A stretch of DNA of 33,998 nucleotides from Candidatus Ryanbacteria bacterium RIFCSPLOWO2_12_FULL_47_9c (GTDB lineage Bacteria > Patescibacteriota > Minisyncoccia > Ryanbacterales > GWA2-47-10b), in NCBI GenBank assembly GCA_001821795.1, contig MHOB01000023.1, forward strand, positions 1-33,998, written 5' to 3'. The first letter of the stretch is position 1, and each line of letters begins with the position of its first letter. The position numbers were made by a program, and so were the translations under genes. The notes beneath the pieces are model-generated. The model did not search any database. It saw nothing but the letters and a program-made list of their open reading frames with translations, and had not been told where the DNA came from. Shown in pieces: positions 2 through 19,109 of the stretch.

Positions 2-736
2 GTAACTAAAATCCGCGGTGCGTTGTTGTACCCCGCAGTTGTCCTTGTTGCCGCATTCTTGCTTGCGCTTGGACTTTCGTTTTTTGTGCTTCCCAAAATA
101 GTTCCTCTTTTTCAAGGTTTGCGCACGGAGTTGCCGCTGACGACTAGAGCCCTCATACGGTTTTCTAATTTTATCAGTGCGCACGGCGTATCAACGGCCG
201 TGGGGATTATTCTGGGCGCGTGTATTCTTGTATGGCTTGCAAAGCGCCCCGCAACAAGACCTTTTACCCATCTGATTATTCTCCGGGCGCCGATCACGGG
301 AACTATGGCACGGAATGCAAACATGACCCGTTTTAGCCGCACGCTTGGGATGCTTCTTCGAAGCGGAGTGAGTATTGATGAGGCGCTTACTATTACACAG
401 AAATCGCTCGGAAATTATTATTACCAGCAAGCGCTTGTTGCCGCTTCGATGCGAATTGTAAAAGGTGCAAGATTGTCTGAAAGTCTTGCGGACTATCCGC
501 ATCTTTTTCCCATGATTGCAACAAAGATGATTCGCGTGGGGGAAGAAGCGGGAAGGTTCGAGGAAACACTGCTGTACCTCGCGAGTTTTTACGAGGCAGA
601 AGTTGATGCATCGACAAGGACACTGTCAGTGGTACTCGAGCCCTTATTGCTTCTTCTGATTGGTCTCGTTGTAGGTGGGCTTGCGCTTGCGATTATCACT
701 CCGATTTATGAAATCACGGGAAACATCCGGTACTAG
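2..736 (+). CDS. pilC: Type IV pilus/T2SS inner-membrane platform protein (PilC/GspF family), C-terminal portion; the 5' end lies upstream of the window
   Basis: The frame is open from nt 2 (gta act aaa atc cgc ggt gcg), so the TTG at 23 in the ORF track is not the true start. The translation has T2SSF-domain hallmarks (KIRGALLYPAVVLVAAF, FVLPKIVPLF, MIRVGEEAGRFEETL) and hydrophobic TM stretches. It is directly followed by pilin genes. Confidence 0.9.
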   Translation, partial: VTKIRGALLYPAVVLVAAFLLALGLSFFVLPKIVPLFQGLRTELPLTTRALIRFSNFISAHGVSTAVGIILGACILVWLAKRPATRPFTHLIILRAPITGTMARNANMTRFSRTLGMLLRSGVSIDEALTITQKSLGNYYYQQALVAASMRIVKGARLSESLADYPHLFPMIATKMIRVGEEAGRFEETLLYLASFYEAEVDASTRTLSVVLEPLLLLLIGLVVGGLALAIITPIYEITGNIRY

Positions 737-1196
737 TGGCTTCACTCTCGTAGAATTGCTCATGACGATGGCGCTTCTCCTGATTTTGGGAGCAAGCGCT
801 GTTCCTCTTTATGGGAATTTATATACAGAAAGCCAGGTCGACGAGGTCGCAGATTTGATGGTACAAATGTTGCGTACGACGCGTGTCCGATCTCAAGCCG
901 GCCTTGATGATGCAACACACGGTTTCTATGTCGATGCGCGTAGCTATGTGCTTTATGAAGTCTCCGCGGGGGTGACTCCTGTTGAATATTCAAATCGTAA
1001 TGCGTCGTTTGACTTTGTTGTTTCCATGCCAAGCGCAATTACTCTTTCGACATCGATCCCGGCCGGTGATCTTATCTTTACGCGCCCTCGGGGCATTCCT
1101 TCCATTGCGGCTACCGAAACGATTACCATAACGCATGAATCGGGGGCTCGTCGCGATATTGAAATTAACAGTTTTGGCATAATATCTCTGCGATGA
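708..1196 (+). CDS. Prepilin-type minor pilin (FimT/GspH-like pseudopilin)
   Basis: N-terminus MKSRETSGTSG|FTLVELLMTMALLLIL is a class III (prepilin peptidase) signal with G-1, F+1 and E+5. I chose ATG 708 rather than the track start at 675. It overlaps the pilC stop by 29 nt. Confidence 0.8.
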   Translation: MKSRETSGTSGFTLVELLMTMALLLILGASAVPLYGNLYTESQVDEVADLMVQMLRTTRVRSQAGLDDATHGFYVDARSYVLYEVSAGVTPVEYSNRNASFDFVVSMPSAITLSTSIPAGDLIFTRPRGIPSIAATETITITHESGARRDIEINSFGIISLR

Positions 1197-3379
1197 AAAG
1201 AGGTCAGACGCTTTTTGAAGTCATCCTTGCGCTTGCGATTTTTTCCCTTATTGCGACGACCCTTGTGAGCATGGCGGCTGGTGGTGCGCGCGGGCTTGTT
1301 GGTGGAGGAGAAATCACCCAAGCGGACTCTCTTGCCGATGAAGGCATCGAAGCGGTGCGCGGGGTGCGCGATCGCGCATGGAATGGACTTCCTTCAGGCG
1401 CGAGCCAGGTTGTCTTCAATGCGGGAAGGTGGGAACTCAATGGAATTGGCGTTCCAGAAGTTATGGGAAAATTTTCGCGGCTTATTTCACTTGATGAGGT
1501 ATGCCGTACGAGTGCTGGCGCACTGACTTCTTGCCCCGGAGATTACGAGGATATTTACGTAAAAAAAATTGCATCGCGCGTTGAGTGGCAAAATCAATTC
1601 GGGCTTCCTAATGTTGCCGAGCGCACAACGTATCTTGCAAACTGGGATTCCCGAGATTGGGTTGAAGATTCTGTGGCGGATTTTACGGATGGCGATTTCG
1701 CCGATACTGCCCTACACCCATCGTTTGGGGATGGAGACGGATCGGTTACTCTTGCCCCCATACCGGTGCCGCCAAAATCAATGATTGTATATGCAAAGAG
1801 TTCAGGTGATCCAAAACCATATTTTCGCTTATGGGATGGTACTTCGTGGGGAGACGAACAGGAAGCTCCTCCGGTTGGTGCGCCCGGAGTTGGAATACGG
1901 TATATGGTTTTGAAGTTTGCGCGCACGCGCGACGAGGCGATATTGGGAACGATGGATTCGTCTGGGCGTATTCGTGTACAGACCTGGGATGGCTCGGTAT
2001 GGAGTTCGCCAATTTTTCTTGCAAGCGCGAGTGGTGAACGTGGATTTGATATAGAATACGAAACGACCAGCGACCGCGCGGTTGTCGTGTACAACAATCC
2101 TAGCATGCTAACCCCAGTAAGTTACCGTATTTGGGATGGATCGGCGTGGGTTTCTCAAGAGTCTATTTCTACAGTACTCGGTGGTGGGATATCATGGGTT
2201 GAACTTACCGCAAATCCTCTTTCCGGAAGCAATGAGATTGCTATGATGCTCATCGATTCAAGAGTGGATGTATACGGGATGGTATGGACGGGAAGCGTGT
2301 GGAGTAATATGGGTTCTTCGGCTGTGTGGGACGCGAATGCTTCAAATGCAACTACAAAAATATTTGATATTGCATACGAGCAAACAACGGGACGCGCGAT
2401 GTTTATGTGGGGGCGCGCCGCGACTGGCCAGCTTTATTACCGTGTATGGGATGGGGGCGCGCTTACCGTTCCTACACTTCTTTCTATCTCTGCGATGAAT
2501 GGCAGGTCGCGATGGCTTCGCCTTGCATCAGACTTTGCTGCTGGTTCAAACAAAATTATGATGGGGGTTCAGGGCGGTACCGGTGATTTGAATACGCGAC
2601 TATGGTCCGGCACTGCGTGGGACACTGTTGCCCAGCATCCGGAACACGACAATTCTGTTGAAGAAAATCAGTCGCGGAGTTTTGATATTGTTTTTGAAAC
2701 GCACCCGAGCAAGGTTGGACAGGCGATACTTGCGTGGGGCAATGGATCTACTGTTTCGCGAAAGTACTGGGATGATCTGACCTCGACATGGAGTGTGCCT
2801 ACGACGAGTGGCGATGATACATCGTTTGTTACGCTTGCAGCAAATTCAATAAATGGCGATGTTTTTCTCGGCATATACCAAGATTCAACATCGGCGACAG
2901 ACGACATTTTGGAAGAACATCTTACCGGTGGAAGTTCTCTGTGGAGCTTTGATGCAACTTTGTGGGGTGGGCCCACTCTTTCTGGAGCGGCTTTGGAACG
3001 TATTGTCATTGCGTCCGGAAAATTCAGTACATCACAAACATACCAATTTTCCGGCACTTATATTTCAAATGCATTCGACGCAGAAGCAACCCGCGCATTT
3101 AATGGTATTCAATGGAAAGAGAGCAAAACGAATCCTGCTTGCGGCGCATGTACAGTCCGTCTCCAGATTCAGACATCCGCCGACGGATTAAGTTGGCCGC
3201 CCACGTGGTCGGGTCCTCTTGGAAACAATGGAGATGAAATTGATTTTTTTATTATACCGACGGGCACACTTATTCATACCGACCACAACGGCGATCGGTG
3301 GGTACGATATCGCGCGACGCTTGAAGGCGATGGGTCAGAGACGCCCATTCTTGAGGAGATCAGAATTAATTACCGATAA
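1193..3379 (+). CDS. Giant pilin-like protein (728 aa): prepilin N-terminus, pseudopilin-like head, about 400 aa of W-D-G-x-x-W repeats, and a C-terminal beta-rich domain; putative pilus tip adhesin
   Basis: MKRG|QTLFEVILALAIF is a class III signal with E+5. The start overlaps the previous stop as ATGA at 1193-1196. Eight spaced tryptophan motifs occur: RLWDGTSW, QTWDGSVW, RIWDGSAW, MVWTGSVW, RVWDGGAL, RLWSGTAW, KYWDDLTSTW, SSLWSFDATLW. Confidence 0.8.
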   Translation: MKRGQTLFEVILALAIFSLIATTLVSMAAGGARGLVGGGEITQADSLADEGIEAVRGVRDRAWNGLPSGASQVVFNAGRWELNGIGVPEVMGKFSRLISLDEVCRTSAGALTSCPGDYEDIYVKKIASRVEWQNQFGLPNVAERTTYLANWDSRDWVEDSVADFTDGDFADTALHPSFGDGDGSVTLAPIPVPPKSMIVYAKSSGDPKPYFRLWDGTSWGDEQEAPPVGAPGVGIRYMVLKFARTRDEAILGTMDSSGRIRVQTWDGSVWSSPIFLASASGERGFDIEYETTSDRAVVVYNNPSMLTPVSYRIWDGSAWVSQESISTVLGGGISWVELTANPLSGSNEIAMMLIDSRVDVYGMVWTGSVWSNMGSSAVWDANASNATTKIFDIAYEQTTGRAMFMWGRAATGQLYYRVWDGGALTVPTLLSISAMNGRSRWLRLASDFAAGSNKIMMGVQGGTGDLNTRLWSGTAWDTVAQHPEHDNSVEENQSRSFDIVFETHPSKVGQAILAWGNGSTVSRKYWDDLTSTWSVPTTSGDDTSFVTLAANSINGDVFLGIYQDSTSATDDILEEHLTGGSSLWSFDATLWGGPTLSGAALERIVIASGKFSTSQTYQFSGTYISNAFDAEATRAFNGIQWKESKTNPACGACTVRLQIQTSADGLSWPPTWSGPLGNNGDEIDFFIIPTGTLIHTDHNGDRWVRYRATLEGDGSETPILEEIRINYR

Positions 3380-3380
3380 T

Positions 3381-4251: not shown

Positions 4252-5229
4252 ATGGTTCATTTTTTTCAGAAAAAAACTGTTGGCGTGAGCATCTCCGATA
4301 ACGCGATAGAAGTTGTAGAACTTGTCCATGATGGCGCGTTCAAGATTTCATCGCGCGGGCGTGTTGAGCTCGAAACCGGTGTGATTGTAAAGGGAAGAAT
4401 CTCAGATTCTTTAAAACTCACGGCTTCGTTTCGCGAGCTTTTTCGGAACGTAGAATTCCCTCATGAGATCATCTGCGGCTTGCCGGAGGCGCAGACGTTC
4501 CTCTCTATATATGAGTCGGAAGATATGAGCAAGGAAAGCATCACGCGCGCCGTGTATCAGAATATTCCTCTTGAGAAGGAAAATATTATTTTTTCATATG
4601 CAGTTGGACGCGATGAGAAAGAAAAAAAGAGAGTGCTTGTGATTGCCGCAAGCCGCGTGGTACTTTCCGAATGGAATAACTTTTTTATTTCTCTTGGTAT
4701 TGAAGTTAAATTTTTTGATTCTGAAGCGCTTGCGATCGTACGGAACGTTTTTTCATCTCGTCCTAAAGATCCCGCGTGTATCGTGAGAAGCGATGCTTTT
4801 CTCACGATGATTTTGGTGTGTGATGAATATGGCCTCGCATACGCTTATTCGCTTCGTACCACAGGCGATACGACAATGATTGTTCGCGAAATTCGAGGCG
4901 CTTTTGATTATTATCGGCATCGCGAACAGAAAGACATTCATGCCCTTGTGCTCGTTGGCAGTTTATCTCGGACCTCGGGCTTTAAAGATTATATGGAAAA
5001 AAATATGGGGATTCCGGCAAAGAGCGACCTTCCCGAAACTGTCGATCTCGCGGCGCTTGGTATTGCAATGCGGGGTTTTGAGGAAGGGGATCCTGTATTA
5101 ACGATAGAGGGAGCCGCACGGCACCATTCGCAGAAGATGCCGCTTGCGGGGTTAGTTGCTATTGCCACGTTGTCGGTGGCAATTGTGCTGGTGACTGTTC
5201 TGATTATATGGGCGTTGGTTCTTTGGTGA
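4252..5229 (+). CDS. pilM: PilM-like (actin/HSP70-fold) pilus assembly protein with a C-terminal transmembrane anchor
   Basis: N-terminus KKTVGVSISDNAIEVVEL matches the PilM-type phosphate-1 strand pattern. It is 325 aa long and ends in a TM helix (LAGLVAIATLSVAIVLVTVLIIWALVLW). It sits between the minor and major pilin genes. Confidence 0.65.
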   Translation: MVHFFQKKTVGVSISDNAIEVVELVHDGAFKISSRGRVELETGVIVKGRISDSLKLTASFRELFRNVEFPHEIICGLPEAQTFLSIYESEDMSKESITRAVYQNIPLEKENIIFSYAVGRDEKEKKRVLVIAASRVVLSEWNNFFISLGIEVKFFDSEALAIVRNVFSSRPKDPACIVRSDAFLTMILVCDEYGLAYAYSLRTTGDTTMIVREIRGAFDYYRHREQKDIHALVLVGSLSRTSGFKDYMEKNMGIPAKSDLPETVDLAALGIAMRGFEEGDPVLTIEGAARHHSQKMPLAGLVAIATLSVAIVLVTVLIIWALVLW

Positions 5230-5312: not shown

Positions 5313-5837
5313 ATGAAAAGAGAAAAAAATACGATGCGCGGCTTTACTCTCATTGAGCTTCTCATTGTCATCGGTCTTATCGCGATCCTTGCGGGGGTTG
5401 TTTTTGTGGCGCTTGATCCCCTCACGCGATTTGCCGCCGCGCGAAACTCACGCCGCGCCGCGGATGTTTCTTCGATTCTAAGCGCGATCCGCGTGCATCA
5501 GGTTGATAACGGCGGAAATTATCATGCCAATATCGCTGGCCTCACTGACGATACGTTTTACATGATCGGCACCGCGTCGGGAAATCCCGGTTGCCAGAAC
5601 GAGCCGGCCGGCAATATGCCCGTGTGCGCAACACAGGCAATTTTAGACAGCAATTGTGTTGATATTGTTCCGCTTTCAACTCTTGGTTATCTCGGTGTTG
5701 TTCCGCAGAGTCCCAATGGTTCCAAGTCATGGAGTCAAGCCAACACGGGTTACTATATGAGTAGGAACGCGAATAATTCTGTAACGGTTGGAGCATGTGA
5801 AGACGAGGGTCTTGGTGCGATTAAAATAACGCGATGA
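5313..5837 (+). CDS. Type IV pilin, probable major subunit
   Basis: MKREKNTMRG|FTLIELLIVIGLIAILAGVVFVAL is a canonical prepilin N-methylation motif with E+5. The globular part contains Cys pairs. It is the last gene of the cluster and is followed by a strong terminator. An alternative start is ATG 5334. Confidence 0.85.
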   Translation: MKREKNTMRGFTLIELLIVIGLIAILAGVVFVALDPLTRFAAARNSRRAADVSSILSAIRVHQVDNGGNYHANIAGLTDDTFYMIGTASGNPGCQNEPAGNMPVCATQAILDSNCVDIVPLSTLGYLGVVPQSPNGSKSWSQANTGYYMSRNANNSVTVGACEDEGLGAIKITR

Positions 5838-7420: not shown

Positions 7421-7497
7421 TGGCGGGGTGGACGGGACTCGAACCCGCGACCTTCCGCGTGACAGGCGGACGCTCTAACCAGCTGAGCTACCACCCC
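7421..7497 (-). tRNA. tRNA-Asp (anticodon GTC), CCA encoded
   Basis: Reverse complement: GGGGTGG TA GCTC AGCTGGTTA GAGC G TCCGC CTGTCAC GCGGA AGGTC GCGGG TTCGAGT CCCGT CCACCCC G CCA. This folds as a full cloverleaf of 77 nt. Confidence 0.95.
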
Positions 7498-7527
7498 AAA
7501 ATTGGGGGCGTACAATATTCAGTTGTG

Positions 7528-7600
7528 TGCCGGCAGCAGGGATCGAACCTGCGGCCTAACGCTTATGAAGCGCTCGCTCTAACCACTGAGCTATGCCGGC
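7528..7600 (-). tRNA. tRNA with CAT anticodon (elongator Met, or an Ile2 lysidine-type); CCA not encoded
   Basis: Reverse complement: GCCGGCA TA GCTC AGTGGTTA GAGC G AGCGC TTCATAA GCGTT AGGCC GCAGG TTCGATC CCTGC TGCCGGC A. It is not an initiator, because 1:72 is a G:C pair and the anticodon stem lacks the GGG/CCC run. Confidence 0.9.
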
Positions 7601-7720: not shown

Positions 7721-8755
7721 ATGGAATTGCTTGAAACCCTCAAAAAACGCGCCCTTGAGACACTTGAAAAAGTAGCGGACGCGTCCGGTCTTGCGCAGTG
7801 GGAAATCGAAATTTTTGGCCGCAAACAGGGGGAATTGACTCGTCTTTTGCGCTCGCTTCGGGACCTTCCCGAGGCGGAACGGAGAAAGATCGGCGCGGGT
7901 GCAAATAAACTCCGAGAGAAACTTGAGGAGGAATTAAACAAAAAACGGGCATTTATCAAAAAACAAACTACCAAGCGCGAGCTCCTTAAAGAAAAAGTAG
8001 ACATTACGTTTCCCGGCACTCGCCACAAACGCGGGCATTTGCATCCGCTTACTCAAATCCGGCTTACATCCGAACATATTTTTACCTCATTGGGATTTGC
8101 GATTGTGGAAGGTCCTGAAATCGAGACCGAATTTTACAATTTCGATGCCCTCAATATGGCGGGGCATTCAGCGCGCGATATGCAGGAGACGTTTTGGCTT
8201 GATAAATCTATACCCGGGAAGAATAGATATGTGCCGCGCACGCAGGTAACGGGAATCCAGGTGCGCTTTATGGAGCGGCATAATCCGCCTTTCCGTATTG
8301 TCTACAGCGGCACGTGTTTTCGGCGAGAAGCGACTGACGCATCCCACGAATTTCAGTTTGATCAGCTCGAATGTCTTATGGTAGATAAAGATATTACGGT
8401 CGCAAATCTTAAATATATCCTCCACGCGTTTTTTGAGAAACTTTTCGGCAAGGGAGTTGAGATTCGTCTTCGCCCAAGTTATTTTCCTTTTACCGAGCCG
8501 AGTTTTGAGGTTGATATTACCTGTATCGGGTGCAGTGGCCGCGGATGTTCTATTTGCAAACAATCTGGTTGGGTGGAGCTTTTGGGAGCGGGCATGGTAA
8601 ATCAAAAGGTGTTTAAAGCGGCGGGATATGTGCCGCGCCAGTGGCAGGGCTTTGCTTTCGGCATGGGGCTCGACCGTATCGCGATGATGAAATACAAAAT
8701 TCCCGACATCCGCCTCTTCCGCCAAAACGATATCCGCTTCCTACAGCAGTTTTAG
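7721..8755 (+). CDS. pheS: Phenylalanine--tRNA ligase alpha subunit
   Basis: Class II aaRS motifs are present: FRREATDASHEFQFDQLE, GAGMVNQKV, GFAFGMGLDRIAMMKY. The N-terminus is a coiled coil. It is 344 aa long. Confidence 0.95.
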   Translation: MELLETLKKRALETLEKVADASGLAQWEIEIFGRKQGELTRLLRSLRDLPEAERRKIGAGANKLREKLEEELNKKRAFIKKQTTKRELLKEKVDITFPGTRHKRGHLHPLTQIRLTSEHIFTSLGFAIVEGPEIETEFYNFDALNMAGHSARDMQETFWLDKSIPGKNRYVPRTQVTGIQVRFMERHNPPFRIVYSGTCFRREATDASHEFQFDQLECLMVDKDITVANLKYILHAFFEKLFGKGVEIRLRPSYFPFTEPSFEVDITCIGCSGRGCSICKQSGWVELLGAGMVNQKVFKAAGYVPRQWQGFAFGMGLDRIAMMKYKIPDIRLFRQNDIRFLQQF

Positions 8756-8760
8756 TATTT

Positions 8761-12832
<4,072 letters not shown>

Positions 12833-15848: not shown

Positions 15849-16487
15849 ATGGACAAACACGCGACTGGAAAATTCATTGTTTTTGAAGGCGGGGAGTGTG
15901 TTGGTAAAACAAGCCAAATTAAGCTGCTCGCAGAGAGGCTTCGCGTATTTGGTCATGATGTGGTAGTGACAAAGGAGCCCGGAGGCGGAGGGGAAGAGCC
16001 GCGCAGGATTCGTGAATTGTTACTTTCTGGCACGCTTTCGCCAAAAGAAGAAATAGAGCTTTTTATAAAAAATCGCCGTCTTCATGTTGCGAATCTTATT
16101 CGGCCGTCACTTGAAAAAGGTTGTATTATCCTATGCGATCGATTTTCCGACTCTACGTTTGCTTATCAATGTTATGCGCGAAACTTGGGTATTGAGTCGG
16201 CACAACTTCTTGATGCGGATGCACGGCAGGGCGTTGCCCCCGACTTAGTAATCGTTCTTGATATGCCGGTAGAGCGCGCACTCGAGCGTCTATCTCAAAG
16301 AAAGGGAGAGGTATCCGCATTTGATCGGGAAAAACGAGAATTTCACGAACGAGTGCGAGCAGGTTTCCGGGCGGTTGCGAAAGCTTTTTCCCATAACCAT
16401 GTCGTGCTTAATGCCGATGCGAGTCAGGAATCTGTTGCTACGGCAGTATGGGGTGTTATTGTAGAAAGATTTCCTGGTATAGTATAA
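15849..16487 (+). CDS. tmk: dTMP (thymidylate) kinase
   Basis: P-loop FIVFEGGECVGKTSQ, then TKEPGG, a DRF motif (CDRFSDSTFAYQ) and a lid region. SD AGGAGG lies at 15831-15836. Confidence 0.9.
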   Translation: MDKHATGKFIVFEGGECVGKTSQIKLLAERLRVFGHDVVVTKEPGGGGEEPRRIRELLLSGTLSPKEEIELFIKNRRLHVANLIRPSLEKGCIILCDRFSDSTFAYQCYARNLGIESAQLLDADARQGVAPDLVIVLDMPVERALERLSQRKGEVSAFDREKREFHERVRAGFRAVAKAFSHNHVVLNADASQESVATAVWGVIVERFPGIV

Positions 16488-16495
16488 ATATTCTT

Positions 16496-17635
16496 ATGCA
16501 AGGCGCTTTTCCATCTCAAAAAATCAAAGAACTCATTACGGGCGGCGCAATTGTAAATGCGAACATTACTAATGTACAGCCGGCAAGTTTAGATTTGACC
16601 ATAAGTGAAGAAATATACCGAGTAGATGCGCTTTTTCTGCCTCGCGTTGGCGAAACGGTACGGCATGCGATGGAAAAAGTAAATCCTTTAAAGTTTAACC
16701 ACGATAATGTTTTTGAAGTAGGGGTTCCATATCTTGTACGCCTTAACGAGGTACTCGCGTTGCCTTCCGATGTATATGCATACATGAATCCCAAGAGCAC
16801 AACGGGAAGGAACGATGTTAAGGTTTCTGTTATTGCCGATGGAATTTCTCGTTTTGATTCAGCAGGTATTTCTGGATATCGCGGAGAGCTTTGGGCGTTT
16901 ATCGAGCCGAAATCATTCCGAATCCGCTTGGCACCGAACGAGGCATTAATACAAATTCGTTTTTTTAATAGTGATACTCGAATCCGCGAGAAAGATCTTC
17001 CTTTATTTTATGAATCAGAAAAGATTCTCTATAACAGCGAGGGAAAAGAAATTCCCTATGATAAGTTAAAAATCTCGGACCGTGATGGCGGCCTCATCCT
17101 TACCGTAGATCTTGATAGCGATATGATCGGTTGGTGCTGCCAAGGTTCACGAAACGTGCTCGATTTTTCCAAACGCAATTTTTATAATCCAAACGATTTT
17201 TTCGAGCCACTGAAGCGCCCTTCAAAGGGAATGCTTTTTTTGCGGCGCGGCAGTTTTTATATTTTTTATACGAAACAATATGTACGTGTTCCCGCGGGTT
17301 TTACATGCGAGATGGCGCCTGTAGATATACGCAATGGTGAGTATCGGTCGCATTATGCGGGTTACATCGATCCCGGATGGGGGTGGGGAGAAAACGGGGA
17401 AATTCTGGGGCGCCCCCTTGTGCTCGAGGTACGCCCGTTTGACGACAACATCCTTCTTTATGATAATCAGCCGGTTTGCAAGCTTATATTTGAGCGGATG
17501 CTTGAAAAACCTGAAATGTTGTATGGAGAGAAGGCCCAGTCGAACTATTTTAGCCAGCAGGGGCCAGTGCTTTCGAAACACTTTAAGCGAAGTAATTCCT
17601 ATGATATCTCAAGAGAATCTTTTTCAGCCGGATAA
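16496..17635 (+). CDS. dCTP deaminase-like protein, long (about 380 aa) DCD-family form
   Basis: VQPASLDLTISEEIYRV and GYIDPGWGWGENGEILGRPLVLEVRP match the dCTP deaminase/dUTPase-fold signatures (compare QPASxDLRLG and IDPGW...LE). The length is about twice that of classical Dcd. The start ATG 16496 lies 8 nt after the tmk stop. Confidence 0.7.
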   Translation: MQGAFPSQKIKELITGGAIVNANITNVQPASLDLTISEEIYRVDALFLPRVGETVRHAMEKVNPLKFNHDNVFEVGVPYLVRLNEVLALPSDVYAYMNPKSTTGRNDVKVSVIADGISRFDSAGISGYRGELWAFIEPKSFRIRLAPNEALIQIRFFNSDTRIREKDLPLFYESEKILYNSEGKEIPYDKLKISDRDGGLILTVDLDSDMIGWCCQGSRNVLDFSKRNFYNPNDFFEPLKRPSKGMLFLRRGSFYIFYTKQYVRVPAGFTCEMAPVDIRNGEYRSHYAGYIDPGWGWGENGEILGRPLVLEVRPFDDNILLYDNQPVCKLIFERMLEKPEMLYGEKAQSNYFSQQGPVLSKHFKRSNSYDISRESFSAG

Positions 17636-19109
17636 ATACAAGGTTTTCCTCGGCGAAGGAAAGTCGGTTGGGTTTTGCACTATCTGGAATGAGCCGGAAG
17701 CGACGGTAAAGCGCGACCCGAGAGTACTCGAGCGCTCGGCAATTGTGGGCACGCTCTATAGCAGACAGGGTGTTAACGCAATTTTACGCAACCTTGCCCT
17801 AAATCCGCAGATTCGAACTTTGTATCTCTGGGGGTATGGGACTCTTTCGAATACTCCTTTTGGCCTTACGGGAAAAAGTATTTTAGTAAATATCTGGACC
17901 GGCGGCATTGATGAGAATCACATGGTGCGCGGCACGAGTTTCAAAATTGACAGTGAAATCCCCGCCACGGTTATCGAAACAATTCGTGCGAATGTTGAGT
18001 TGAGAGACATCAGCACTTTAACATTTGAGGAGGCGATGGCCTCGCTCCAGCAAAGTGGCGATGCTGTCCCGTACATGAGGCCACAAGTTTTTCCCGACCC
18101 GGTACAGGAAAAGATTGATATGTTTCCTTCTGAACAAGTTGGATGGCTTGTGCGTGGCCGCACTGTTGTAGAAGCATGGACGCGCGTTGTCGACCGCATT
18201 ATGCGCTATGGCACCACTAAAGGTACGCAATACGGCATGCAGCAGCGAGAGTTGATTGGCGTGACGTGGGTTATTTCGGCGGAAGATCCAGCCGAGCCAT
18301 TTTTGAATGTTGATTGGCCGGAAGAGGTGCGAAAAACAATCGGACTTACAAAAGAAGCGATCAACGAATATCACGGTGTTTTTCTTTCAAAAGAATTGCC
18401 GGCCGGTATCACCTATACCTATGGCAATCGTCTTATGCAGTATCCGGCGCCGGGCGGCGCACCGATTGATCAGATTGAAGATGTTATCATAAAATCTTTT
18501 CGTTCTTCTCCCGATACGCGCCGCGCAGTTGCAACAACAATGGTGCCGCCCATTGATAAAGATTCAAACGAGCCGCCGTGCATCACTCAAGTCCAGGCAC
18601 TGCAATCCGGCGGAGCTCTTCATTTTTTGGTAACCGTACGGAGCCACGATATTTTTAAAGCGGCTATTCCGAATGCGTTCGGTTTGCGCATGCTGCAAAT
18701 GCGCGTGGCAAGTGAGCTCGGTTTCTCGATGGGCGTACTGCAGATTACATCACAGTCCGCACATATTTATGAAGCAGATTGGGACAATGCCAAAAAGCTT
18801 GCCGCATGCGTTGTGTGGGAAAGAGAGCCCGAAAAAATATTTCGTCCGGAACTTCACGCAGATCCGCGCGGCGTTGTAGTTGTTCTTATCAAAGAAGACG
18901 AAATTGTTGCTGAAATAAAAGCGCCAACCGGTGAGGATTTGATCGAAATTCGCGGTAAGACCGCTAAAGATGTAGCGGCAAAACTCTCACAGCTCGACCT
19001 CTTGAGCAGGTCCGACCATCTTCTCGATATAGGTATGGAGCTTGAGAAAGCTGAAATCGCAAAACAGAAAGGGATTGTGTATATCCAAGACCGACCCCTC
19101 CGATTTTAG
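17601..19109 (+). CDS. Thymidylate-synthase-fold enzyme with an N-terminal MtrA-like domain and a C-terminal DUF4346-like domain (502 aa)
   Basis: The TS core has RRAVATTMVPP, catalytic Cys in EPPCITQVQ (Cys327, nt 18579-18581), VRSHD, and IPN (Asn358). The N-terminus reads VGFCTIW...AIVGTLYSRQGVNAILRNLALNPQIRTLYLWG, which resembles MtrA ([30 protein letters not shown]). The C-terminus reads DPRGVVVV...HLLDIGMELEKAEIAKQKGIVYIQD. ATG 17601 overlaps the upstream gene by 35 nt. Confidence 0.75.
   Translation: MISQENLFQPDKYKVFLGEGKSVGFCTIWNEPEATVKRDPRVLERSAIVGTLYSRQGVNAILRNLALNPQIRTLYLWGYGTLSNTPFGLTGKSILVNIWTGGIDENHMVRGTSFKIDSEIPATVIETIRANVELRDISTLTFEEAMASLQQSGDAVPYMRPQVFPDPVQEKIDMFPSEQVGWLVRGRTVVEAWTRVVDRIMRYGTTKGTQYGMQQRELIGVTWVISAEDPAEPFLNVDWPEEVRKTIGLTKEAINEYHGVFLSKELPAGITYTYGNRLMQYPAPGGAPIDQIEDVIIKSFRSSPDTRRAVATTMVPPIDKDSNEPPCITQVQALQSGGALHFLVTVRSHDIFKAAIPNAFGLRMLQMRVASELGFSMGVLQITSQSAHIYEADWDNAKKLAACVVWEREPEKIFRPELHADPRGVVVVLIKEDEIVAEIKAPTGEDLIEIRGKTAKDVAAKLSQLDLLSRSDHLLDIGMELEKAEIAKQKGIVYIQDRPLRF

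Follow-up and report, generated by a model that had tools for sequence, protein, structure and literature searches.

The window analysed here, a contig of 33,998 nucleotides (MHOB01000023.1) from Candidatus Ryanbacteria bacterium RIFCSPLOWO2_12_FULL_47_9c, an ultrasmall cell from groundwater, carries an operon for a type IV pilus (T4P) in which one minor-pilin gene, the open reading frame ORF728, encodes a protein of 728 amino acids (aa) that combines a prepilin N-terminus with a large predicted β-propeller. ORF728 is probably a modular minor pilin at the tip of the core T4P, where its lectin-like propeller would bind a ligand on another cell or on a surface. Judged by database searches, the propeller constitutes an undescribed domain family within a known functional category. 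The underlying idea is not new, since modular pilins are a described class (PMC8179133) and a propeller pilin, PilX2 of TM7x, was studied experimentally (PMC11623550). With the principle of modular pilins and propeller tip adhesins established, the new element is an undescribed propeller family on a minor pilin of the core pilus.

The fold was predicted with AlphaFold2 (AF2) using an alignment of 58 family sequences (A1), which yielded a model with a mean predicted local distance difference test (pLDDT) score of 81. Residues 190–610 were modelled with pLDDT >90 as an all-β region comprising three to four strands per ~50-aa unit; pLDDT was <50 for aa 151–187 and 613–728, two parts that are jointly present in just one other aligned sequence. 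With Foldseek, 394 PDB matches were obtained at E≤1e-3, mostly propellers. The best 17 were all Photorhabdus lectins of the PLL/PHL type (E 4e-12 to 1e-9; 12–15% identity; target-normalised template modelling (TM) scores of 0.64–0.69), followed by AAL/AFL-type fucose lectins, LGI1 EPTP, GH145, sialidases and NirS, while a search of a viral library retrieved generic propellers only. The structural check proposed in the initial annotation thus produced an all-β model made of repeated blades, with PLL/PHL lectin propellers as top matches. Based on the model, aa ~193–612 are confidently predicted to form a single large closed β-propeller. Alignments to the seven-bladed lectins (341–354 residues) cover 385–396 columns, about one blade beyond the target, and together with the eight repeat units described below this leads us to infer eight blades arranged in one ring. 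The initial annotation had offered an eight-bladed propeller or four tandem domains. The former part of this proposal is compatible with the model, whereas four tandem domains, and likewise two small propellers, were rejected because single-ring propellers align over ~390 columns.

Eight tryptophan motifs of the type W-D-G-x-x-W had been assigned to aa 214, 265, 314, 365, 419, 471, 526 and 584, and all of these tryptophans are exactly where they had been placed (nt 1832, 1985, 2132, 2285, 2447, 2603, 2768 and 2942). However, a strict W-[DTS]-G-x-x-W is found at only five of the eight sites (214, 265, 314, 365 and 471); site 419 reads WDGGAL, and site 526 holds a 2-aa insert (WDDLTSTW). The eighth motif had been mis-registered. 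In the AF2 model the first strand stops at the first tryptophan of the motif in blades 1–7 and at L577 in blade 8, which makes W584 the second tryptophan of its motif. Overall, tryptophan accounts for 4.0% of the residues of ORF728 (29/728) and for 4.8% of those in the repeat region. The segments quoted in the initial annotation as repeat strands, such as RYMVLKFA and FDIEYE, are indeed β-strands in the model.

The arrangement of these motifs in four double units of ~100 aa with two alternating flavours was examined with hhalign, by comparing slices of alignment A1. The double units 196–304, 305–409 and 410–516 matched each other with pairwise E values of 5.6e-18, 2.7e-15 and 2.9e-21. Blades of the same flavour aligned well (blades 1 and 3, E 1e-9; 3 and 5, 1e-17; 2 and 4, 5e-13; 4 and 6, 8e-9), in contrast to pairs across flavours (4 and 5, E 0.011; 5 and 6, E 0.008). 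Since odd–odd and even–even pairs far outscore odd–even pairs, the two alternating blade flavours are real. The proposed architecture therefore stands for units 1 to 3. Unit 4 diverges from the other units (E ~1e-3 to 4e-4), with blade 7 being weakly odd-like (E 1e-5 to 9e-5) and blade 8 barely detectable by sequence. When the strand formed by aa 193–204 was added to unit 4, its match to unit 1, which had spanned 24 columns at E 1.2e-3, extended to 81 columns at E 2.6e-5, a gain that would be expected from a propeller closed in a Velcro-like manner. This strand (KSMIVYAKS) resembles the outer strands of even blades (RAVVVY, RAMFMW, QAILAW), and it is predicted to complete blade 8 by Velcro closure. 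Profile–profile comparison was needed to see the repeats; a BLASTP self-comparison of aa 190–625, which was insufficient for this purpose, gave no off-diagonal match and hence no internal repeat. Together with the lack of any DNA-level repeat in ORF728, the empty self-comparison indicates that the blade duplications are ancient.

The statement that the repeat belongs to no named family was borne out. No match to Pfam, NCBIfam or PDB sequences was obtained for aa 190–728, be it with the single sequence or with the family profile, and the absence of a Pfam or NCBIfam signature is the reason why we consider the family undescribed. RCC1 was not matched by ORF728 at E≤10 nor by the 58 relatives at E≤0.01. 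Membership in DUF2510 was considered and dismissed; the score of 19.5 bits, compared with a threshold of 24, is ascribed to a common R-x-W-D-G-x-x-W hairpin motif. A precomputed Pfam column (accessions up to PF28597) is blank for nearly all relatives. Three of them (P0003, P0004 and P0005; about 1000–1140 aa) consist of two whole propellers in tandem behind a signal-anchor N-terminus and carry the precomputed label PF26696. This label probably marks an extra C-terminal domain of the tandem-propeller proteins rather than the propeller, because it is missing from nearly all other propeller proteins.

The N-terminal part of ORF728 had been described as a prepilin, and this assignment is supported by the glycine at position −1 and the glutamate at +5 of the sequence MKRG/QTLFEVILALAIFSLIA (the slash marks the predicted cleavage site), in which a short basic leader is followed by a hydrophobic helix. 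Residue +1 of the mature protein is Q rather than F or M. The scores for N_methyl (PF07963; 18.8 bits) and TIGR02532 (14.8 bits) are just under the gathering cut-off of 21.2 and the curated cut-off of 16.3, respectively. In the wider family the signature is canonical: the N-terminal consensus of the 58 aligned sequences is KGFSLVEV, N_methyl matches 25 of them (E≤0.01), and a G/FxxxE prepilin N-terminus is present in 106 of 266 relatives retrieved. From these features, PilD would be expected to cleave and methylate the protein, which would then be built into the filament. The AF2 model of the pilin module shows a long helix (aa 2–61) and an antiparallel sheet (aa 69–149) in a lollipop fold (pLDDT 80–94), which means that the pilin head ends at aa 150 and not at aa 190 as initially annotated. 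The products recorded as KKU94427.1 and OGZ57505.1 from metagenome-assembled genomes (Parcubacteria/Candidatus Ryanbacteria), both labelled 'hypothetical protein', are 100% identical to that of ORF728.

Within the H-I-J-K set of minor-pilin genes ORF728 is the second gene and takes the GspI/PilV slot. This is a positional assignment because the GspI models are not reached: TIGR01707 scored 18.3 (cut-off 44.35) and XpsI 17.2 (cut-off 150) bits, with mainly the N-terminal helix covered. Three homologues of ORF728 carry the JGI label PilV. That the weak best NCBIfam matches are GspI/XpsI of the type II secretion system (T2SS) and ComGE could also be taken to mean that ORF728 is a pseudopilin of a T2SS-like or competence filament whose propeller captures cargo or DNA. 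Patescibacteria are thought to depend on the uptake of external DNA and nucleotides, and recA lies 25 kb away in the same window. We nevertheless regard this alternative as highly improbable since the NCBIfam matches span the N-terminal helix only and are far under the cut-off (18 vs 44 bits), the operon holds PilM and a T4P-type major pilin, and in diderms the relatives are encoded alongside PilMNO and a secretin of the PilQ type. Moreover, all modules of ORF728 are acidic (pI 4.0–4.8), which is unfavourable to DNA binding, and a role of ORF728 as DNA-binding protein was rejected on these grounds.

To collect relatives of the propeller, 1.84 billion cluster representatives (50%-identity clusters) were searched exhaustively with phmmer, which gave 1371 proteins at E≤1e-3; 228 of these reach E≤1e-30. 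Scanning the representative genomes of GTDB yielded 45 loci. About 20 genomes of Patescibacteria keep the order PilB-PilC-H-(propeller pilin of 561–596 aa)-J-K-(PilM)-major pilin (L001, L007, L008, L010–L012, L014, L015, L019–L022, L024–L026, L030, L031, L034), and at these loci every neighbour is homologous to its counterpart in the window. These genomes belong to Moranii-, Woese-, Ames- and Daviesbacteria as well as many Saccharimonadales. Of two copies in the Saccharibacteria genome CullarsAll.DT.04, one is full-length and lies within a pilus operon (L026), and the other is cut by a contig end (L029). A copy in Caldiserica adjoins PilB/PilC.

In Nitrospirota and in Beta- and Gammaproteobacteria the gene for the propeller comes after those of three minor pilins. 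Here the propeller is joined to a PilX-like N-terminus without E5, and PilM, a secretin or additional pilin genes lie beside it. The same PilX-like fusion occurs in Thermodesulfobacteriota (L023), where the contig is too short to show the neighbours. In the Nitrospirota loci L003/L017 the fusion (8001–10058) lies directly upstream of PilM-PilN-PilO and a PilQ-type secretin. L028 and L032 are further diderm loci with such fusions. The identity of the propeller to that of ORF728 is ~50% on any carrier (medians of 49.6% for 97 prepilin and 51.7% for 12 PilX-type carriers). Because the diderm copies are fused to the PilX-like fourth minor pilin, the propeller appears to have been attached repeatedly to tip subunits. 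More distant copies are present in Elusimicrobia, Planctomycetes, Acidimicrobiia, Chloroflexota and DPANN archaea. The relatives retrieved with phmmer include tandem duplicates and giants that reach 7926 aa and 18 matched stretches, and four of the large ones that were scanned (1831–2681 aa) contain fn3, TIG or MG2 modules. Giant proteins of 3.5–7.9 kaa (P0122, 6719 aa; P0126, 7926 aa; L039–L041, L047) come from Elusimicrobia, Acidimicrobiia and others, contain the domain in many copies or fragments, and are not part of pilus loci. A propeller with ~50% identity occurs on another minor pilin in free-living diderms and recurs in giant surface proteins, which shows it to be a portable extracellular module.

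Among the DPANN archaea, copies were located in Aenigmatarchaeota (L036, 6001–7023) and Woesearchaeota (L050, 6001–6843). In P0178, a relative of 660 aa, a class III signal of archaeal style (MRGQIQLE) occurs together with the propeller and the same C-terminal module as in ORF728; a tip module common to Candidate Phyla Radiation (CPR) bacteria and DPANN archaea is thus possible.

Several characterized systems resemble ORF728 in part. Experimentally, the nearest precedent is PilX2 of TM7x (Nanosynbacter lyticus, Saccharibacteria); this minor pilin ends in a propeller, and its deletion halves host binding (PMC11623550). Like PilX2, ORF728 is a Patescibacterial minor pilin with a large C-terminal propeller, and the nearest structures are in both cases PLL-type Photorhabdus lectins. 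However, PilX2 was described as a seven-bladed propeller with RCC1 repeats and without predicted PilD signal, its gene being part of a locus that holds only pilins and belongs to a thin accessory pilus (PMC11623550). By contrast, ORF728 and its 57 relatives do not match RCC1, its eight units form four double units, and it has a G...E5 signal and is located in a PilB-PilC-...-PilM core operon; this comparison is based on the description of PilX2. Modular pilins were also described in Streptococcus sanguinis, namely PilB with a vWA and PilC with a ConA-like lectin module, both modules being expected to be exposed at the tip (PMC8179133). Similarly, ORF728 consists of a small pilin module that bears a grafted module and is expected at the filament tip, yet this module is an undescribed propeller rather than a vWA or ConA-like domain, and its carrier is the minor pilin at the second position (I/PilV) in a priming set of four. 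The survey by Raynaud et al. foresaw many more modular pilins with modules that lack database signatures (PMC8179133).

The lectins that gave the best fold matches, PLL/PHL (PDB 5C9O, 5MXE, 6RGR), share with ORF728 tryptophan-rich, four-stranded blades of ~50 aa. In PHL the blades are termed 'W-motifs', and sugars are bound between blades against tryptophan side chains (PMC5584973). Fucose, rhamnose or O-methylated sugars are the inter-blade ligands typical of the PLL/PHL family, and by analogy, inter-blade sugar binding is a putative property of the ORF728 propeller. PLL/PHL proteins differ in having seven uniform blades instead of the eight units of alternating type deduced for ORF728, and they are soluble oligomeric lectins and not pilin fusions; no sequence-level match to ORF728 was found even by profile. 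The fucose lectins RSL/BambL and those of the AAL family are built from two-blade units and become six-bladed via trimerisation or six repeats. The duplicated, tryptophan-rich two-blade units of ORF728 are reminiscent of these proteins, whose known members are lectins, but there is no sequence relation and the TM score is only 0.5–0.58.

The initial annotation had further suggested that ORF728 combines PilY1-like and minor-pilin roles in one polypeptide. As in PilC/PilY1, a large propeller would be positioned at the tip alongside minor pilins of the GspH/I/J/K type, and the diderm relatives are even fused to PilX/PilK-type pilins. On the other hand, PilY1 is a non-pilin that is attached in trans by a C-terminal strand, whereas ORF728 is itself a prepilin. 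PF05567 (PilY1/PilC propeller) is not matched by aa 190–618 even at E≤10, no PilY1-type calcium site was identified, and PilY1 is missing from the top 50 Foldseek matches. The propeller is therefore not PilY1-like by sequence, and the likeness is one of analogy, not homology.

Even so, the propeller could act as an intrinsic factor of pilus biogenesis or dynamics, a cis-acting stand-in for PilC/PilY1 that stabilises or licenses the minor-pilin initiation complex, opposes retraction or senses load, with ligand binding being secondary. Its very high conservation irrespective of carrier pilin or phylum, the conserved non-repeated loop residues and its fixed place in the core, apparently sole, T4P operon would all fit such a role. 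So would the diderm fusions to a PilX/PilK-type pilin, given that PilY1 docks on the PilK-type pilin (PMC13533445), and the lack of a called PilY1 gene in L003, the sole diderm locus with Pfam gene annotation. We consider this explanation rather unlikely, not only because of the missing PF05567 match and the absence of PilY1 from the top 50 structural matches, but also because the domain is found in giant surface proteins that carry fn3/TIG/MG2 modules and are not part of pili, and in a non-pilin with a signal anchor encoded away from pilus loci, a distribution better suited to a general binding module. Likewise, loss of PilX2 in TM7x left filament extrusion running (PMC11623550), albeit with a propeller of a different family.

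According to the model that we favour, i.e. ORF728 as modular tip pilin, PilD would cleave the ORF728 prepilin and the processed protein would enter the priming complex that the minor pilins form on the PilC platform. Polymerisation of the major pilin driven by PilB would then push it outward as the filament tip, so that the propeller is displayed distally and may bind a ligand on another cell or surface. Given the lectin-like fold, a common glycan is the most likely ligand. Retraction of the pilus could subsequently draw the cell to its target. The role of pilus tip adhesin put forward in the initial annotation is hence plausible, but by analogy only.

The alignment of the propeller contains 44 invariant columns. 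The most conspicuous non-repeated elements are the near-invariant HPEHD loop in blade 6 (aa 482–486; nt 2636–2650), the conserved pair W379-D380 in blade 4 (nt 2327–2332), and E490. The HPEHD and W-D loops may together make up one site for metal binding, ligand binding or catalysis in a ring that is otherwise pseudo-symmetric. If catalytic, the propeller might be an enzyme delivered by the pilus tip, e.g. a glycoside hydrolase or a lyase that attacks the envelope of the target or a polymer. The H482-P-E484-H485-D loop, E490 and W379-D380, together with the invariant acidic residues of the even blades (D286/E290, E396 with a nearly invariant D392, and D498/E502), display a pattern that suits an active site, and the structural matches include propellers of glycosidases (GH145 BT3686, sialidases). 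Yet the latter rank under the lectins (TM 0.34–0.56 vs 0.64–0.69), no catalytic family was detected by Pfam, NCBIfam or PDB sequence search, and the repeated D/E residues sit in predicted β-strands (FDIEYE) where they could be structural or bind a ligand or metal. As we also know of no precedent for an enzymatic propeller on a pilin, an enzymatic function seems distinctly improbable to us.

A number of observations weigh against a tip adhesin of the lectin type. An identity of ~50% across phyla and carriers is atypical of a host-specific adhesin. Such strong conservation across phyla and lifestyles rather suggests a generic ligand, an intrinsic PilY1-like role in assembly, or catalysis, all of which fit it equally well. 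The likeness to lectins is at the level of the fold only (12% identity), and the propeller fold is promiscuous, with glycosidases, sialidases and WD-type scaffolds also being among the matches. The conserved tryptophans may belong to the structural core instead of stacking against sugars. Tip localisation and ligand binding are proposed for the family by analogy, and blade number and ring closure are deduced from the model. Finally, homologues reside in pilus operons in the Patescibacteria with conserved gene order but not throughout: four orphan Saccharimonadales copies (L013, L016, L027, L035) with the full prepilin–propeller architecture are encoded outside recognisable pilus operons, and distant copies are part of non-pilus giant proteins.

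It is tempting to extend the comparison with PilC/PilY1 and to speculate, as a doubtful generalization, that the propeller is the general tip module of T4P devoid of PilY1, a cis equivalent of PilC/PilY1 that has been swapped among carriers. It would both license assembly and bind one ubiquitous ligand via the invariant HPEHD/W-D/FDIEYE surface. The carriers would be PilV-type pilins in Patescibacteria, PilX-type pilins in Nitrospirota, Proteobacteria and Thermodesulfobacteriota, and proteins with class III signals in DPANN archaea.

Two parts of ORF728 outside the pilin module and the propeller deserve mention. The final ~110 aa had been regarded as a separate β-sandwich. A recurrent and separate module, predicted to be all-β, is indeed present; that it is a β-sandwich is plausible from a model built with six sequences (seven strands, pLDDT 70, predicted TM score (pTM) 0.66), for which Foldseek yielded no significant PDB match (best E 0.012) and merely a faint resemblance to the jelly rolls of CBM6, CBM32, discoidin and P-domains (TM ~0.45). 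The module has no Pfam match and is characterized by the motif G-x-Y-x-S-x-x-F-D-A ... W-x-x-I-x-W ... R-Y-I-Q-Y-R ... P-x-L. Database searches returned one match with the single sequence and four with a nine-sequence profile, using a word-index prefilter that is too coarse for so divergent a module. It recurs together with the propeller in unrelated architectures (P0002, P0266, P0265, P0178), and in P0128, P0135, P0150, P0170 and P0172 it is split by large inserts. In large surface proteins these inserts reach hundreds of residues, and some of them are copies of this propeller. The module is an accessory of the ORF728 sub-branch only and perhaps serves as a second binding module.

The acidic segment that connects the pilin module with the propeller is missing from typical homologues of 560–590 aa and present in P0002. 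It may be either a flexible linker or contribute the first strands of the C-terminal module. By eye, aa 153–188 resemble contiguous versions of the module in P0170/P0172/P0150. However, the idea of a sandwich formed by aa 153–188 and the C-terminal module, with the propeller nested in between, is unsupported since a hidden Markov model gave no match in aa 153–188 and chimeras without the propeller scored no higher.

The features of ORF728 and of the pilus operon are listed in the table below. The four minor-pilin genes are linked by ATGA overlaps at 1193 and 3866 and by a 1-nt spacer at 3380, which implies translational coupling and a fixed stoichiometry of the minor pilins. Downstream of the pilus genes the window contains the housekeeping genes pyrH, pheST, gyrB, secDF, rpoBC, ftsK and recA. 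Genes for tRNA-Asp(GTC) and tRNA-Met(CAT) are located on the minus strand at 7421–7600, between the pilus/pyrH block and pheS. An ORF of 591 aa (17334–19109) shows an unusual domain combination, consisting of a partial thymidylate-synthase match and PterinBD-DUF4346. It overlaps the end of the dCTP deaminase gene (16448–17635) by ~300 nt, and its true start is probably further downstream.

Table. Pilus genes of the window and predicted modules of ORF728 (positions in nucleotides of the window).
Feature	Position	Strand	Basis or remark
PilC/T2SSF platform protein, cut by window start	23..736	+	PF00482, E 1e-25
First minor pilin, GspH/FimU position, 162 aa	708..1196	+	Stop overlaps ORF728 start (ATGA)
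ORF728, modular minor pilin gene, 728 aa	1193..3379	+	ATG start, ORF call
Class III (prepilin) leader MKRG	1193..1204	+	Sequence; predicted PilD cut after G4
Pilin module, aa 5–150	1205..1642	+	AF2 pLDDT 80–94; GspI/PilV-like by gene position
Acidic segment, aa 151–192, pI 4.05, low-confidence in AF2	1643..1768	+	
N-terminal propeller strand, aa 193–204	1769..1804	+	AF2 and hhalign
Double unit 1, blades 1–2, aa 205–304; motifs W214, W265	1805..2104	+	hhalign, AF2
Double unit 2, blades 3–4, aa 305–409; W314, W365; invariant W379-D380 loop	2105..2419	+	
Double unit 3, blades 5–6, aa 410–517; W419, W471; loop H482-P-E-H-D486 and E490	2420..2743	+	
Double unit 4, blades 7–8, aa 518–612, divergent; W526/W533, L577...W584	2744..3028	+	
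C-terminal all-β module of ~115 aa, aa 613–728, no known family	3029..3376	+	
Third minor pilin, GspJ/PilW position, 162 aa	3381..3869	+	Starts 1 nt past ORF728 stop
Fourth minor-pilin-like protein, GspK/PilX position, 126 aa	3866..4246	+	Hydrophobic N-terminus without E5; ATGA overlap
PilM-like assembly protein, C-terminal membrane anchor	4252..5229	+	Pfam/NCBIfam
Candidate major pilin, 174 aa, canonical G/FTLIE signal	5313..5837	+	Pfam/NCBIfam

Patescibacteria make up a large portion of bacterial diversity, and T4P are their best-supported organelle for contact and motility. To our knowledge, attachment to other microbes is the way of life of all cultivated members, and what we know of recognition by the pilus tip is sketchy and confined to oral Saccharibacteria. 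Our analysis adds a widely conserved candidate for a tip module of the core pilus in many environmental lineages of Parcubacteria, Microgenomates and Saccharimonadales, and it offers a clear case of a tip module exchanged between carrier pilins. With its boundaries now defined (aa ~193–612), the propeller merits the definition of a domain family. If the propeller were indeed the general tip module of PilY1-less T4P, much of the CPR would rely on it as its primary organ of contact.

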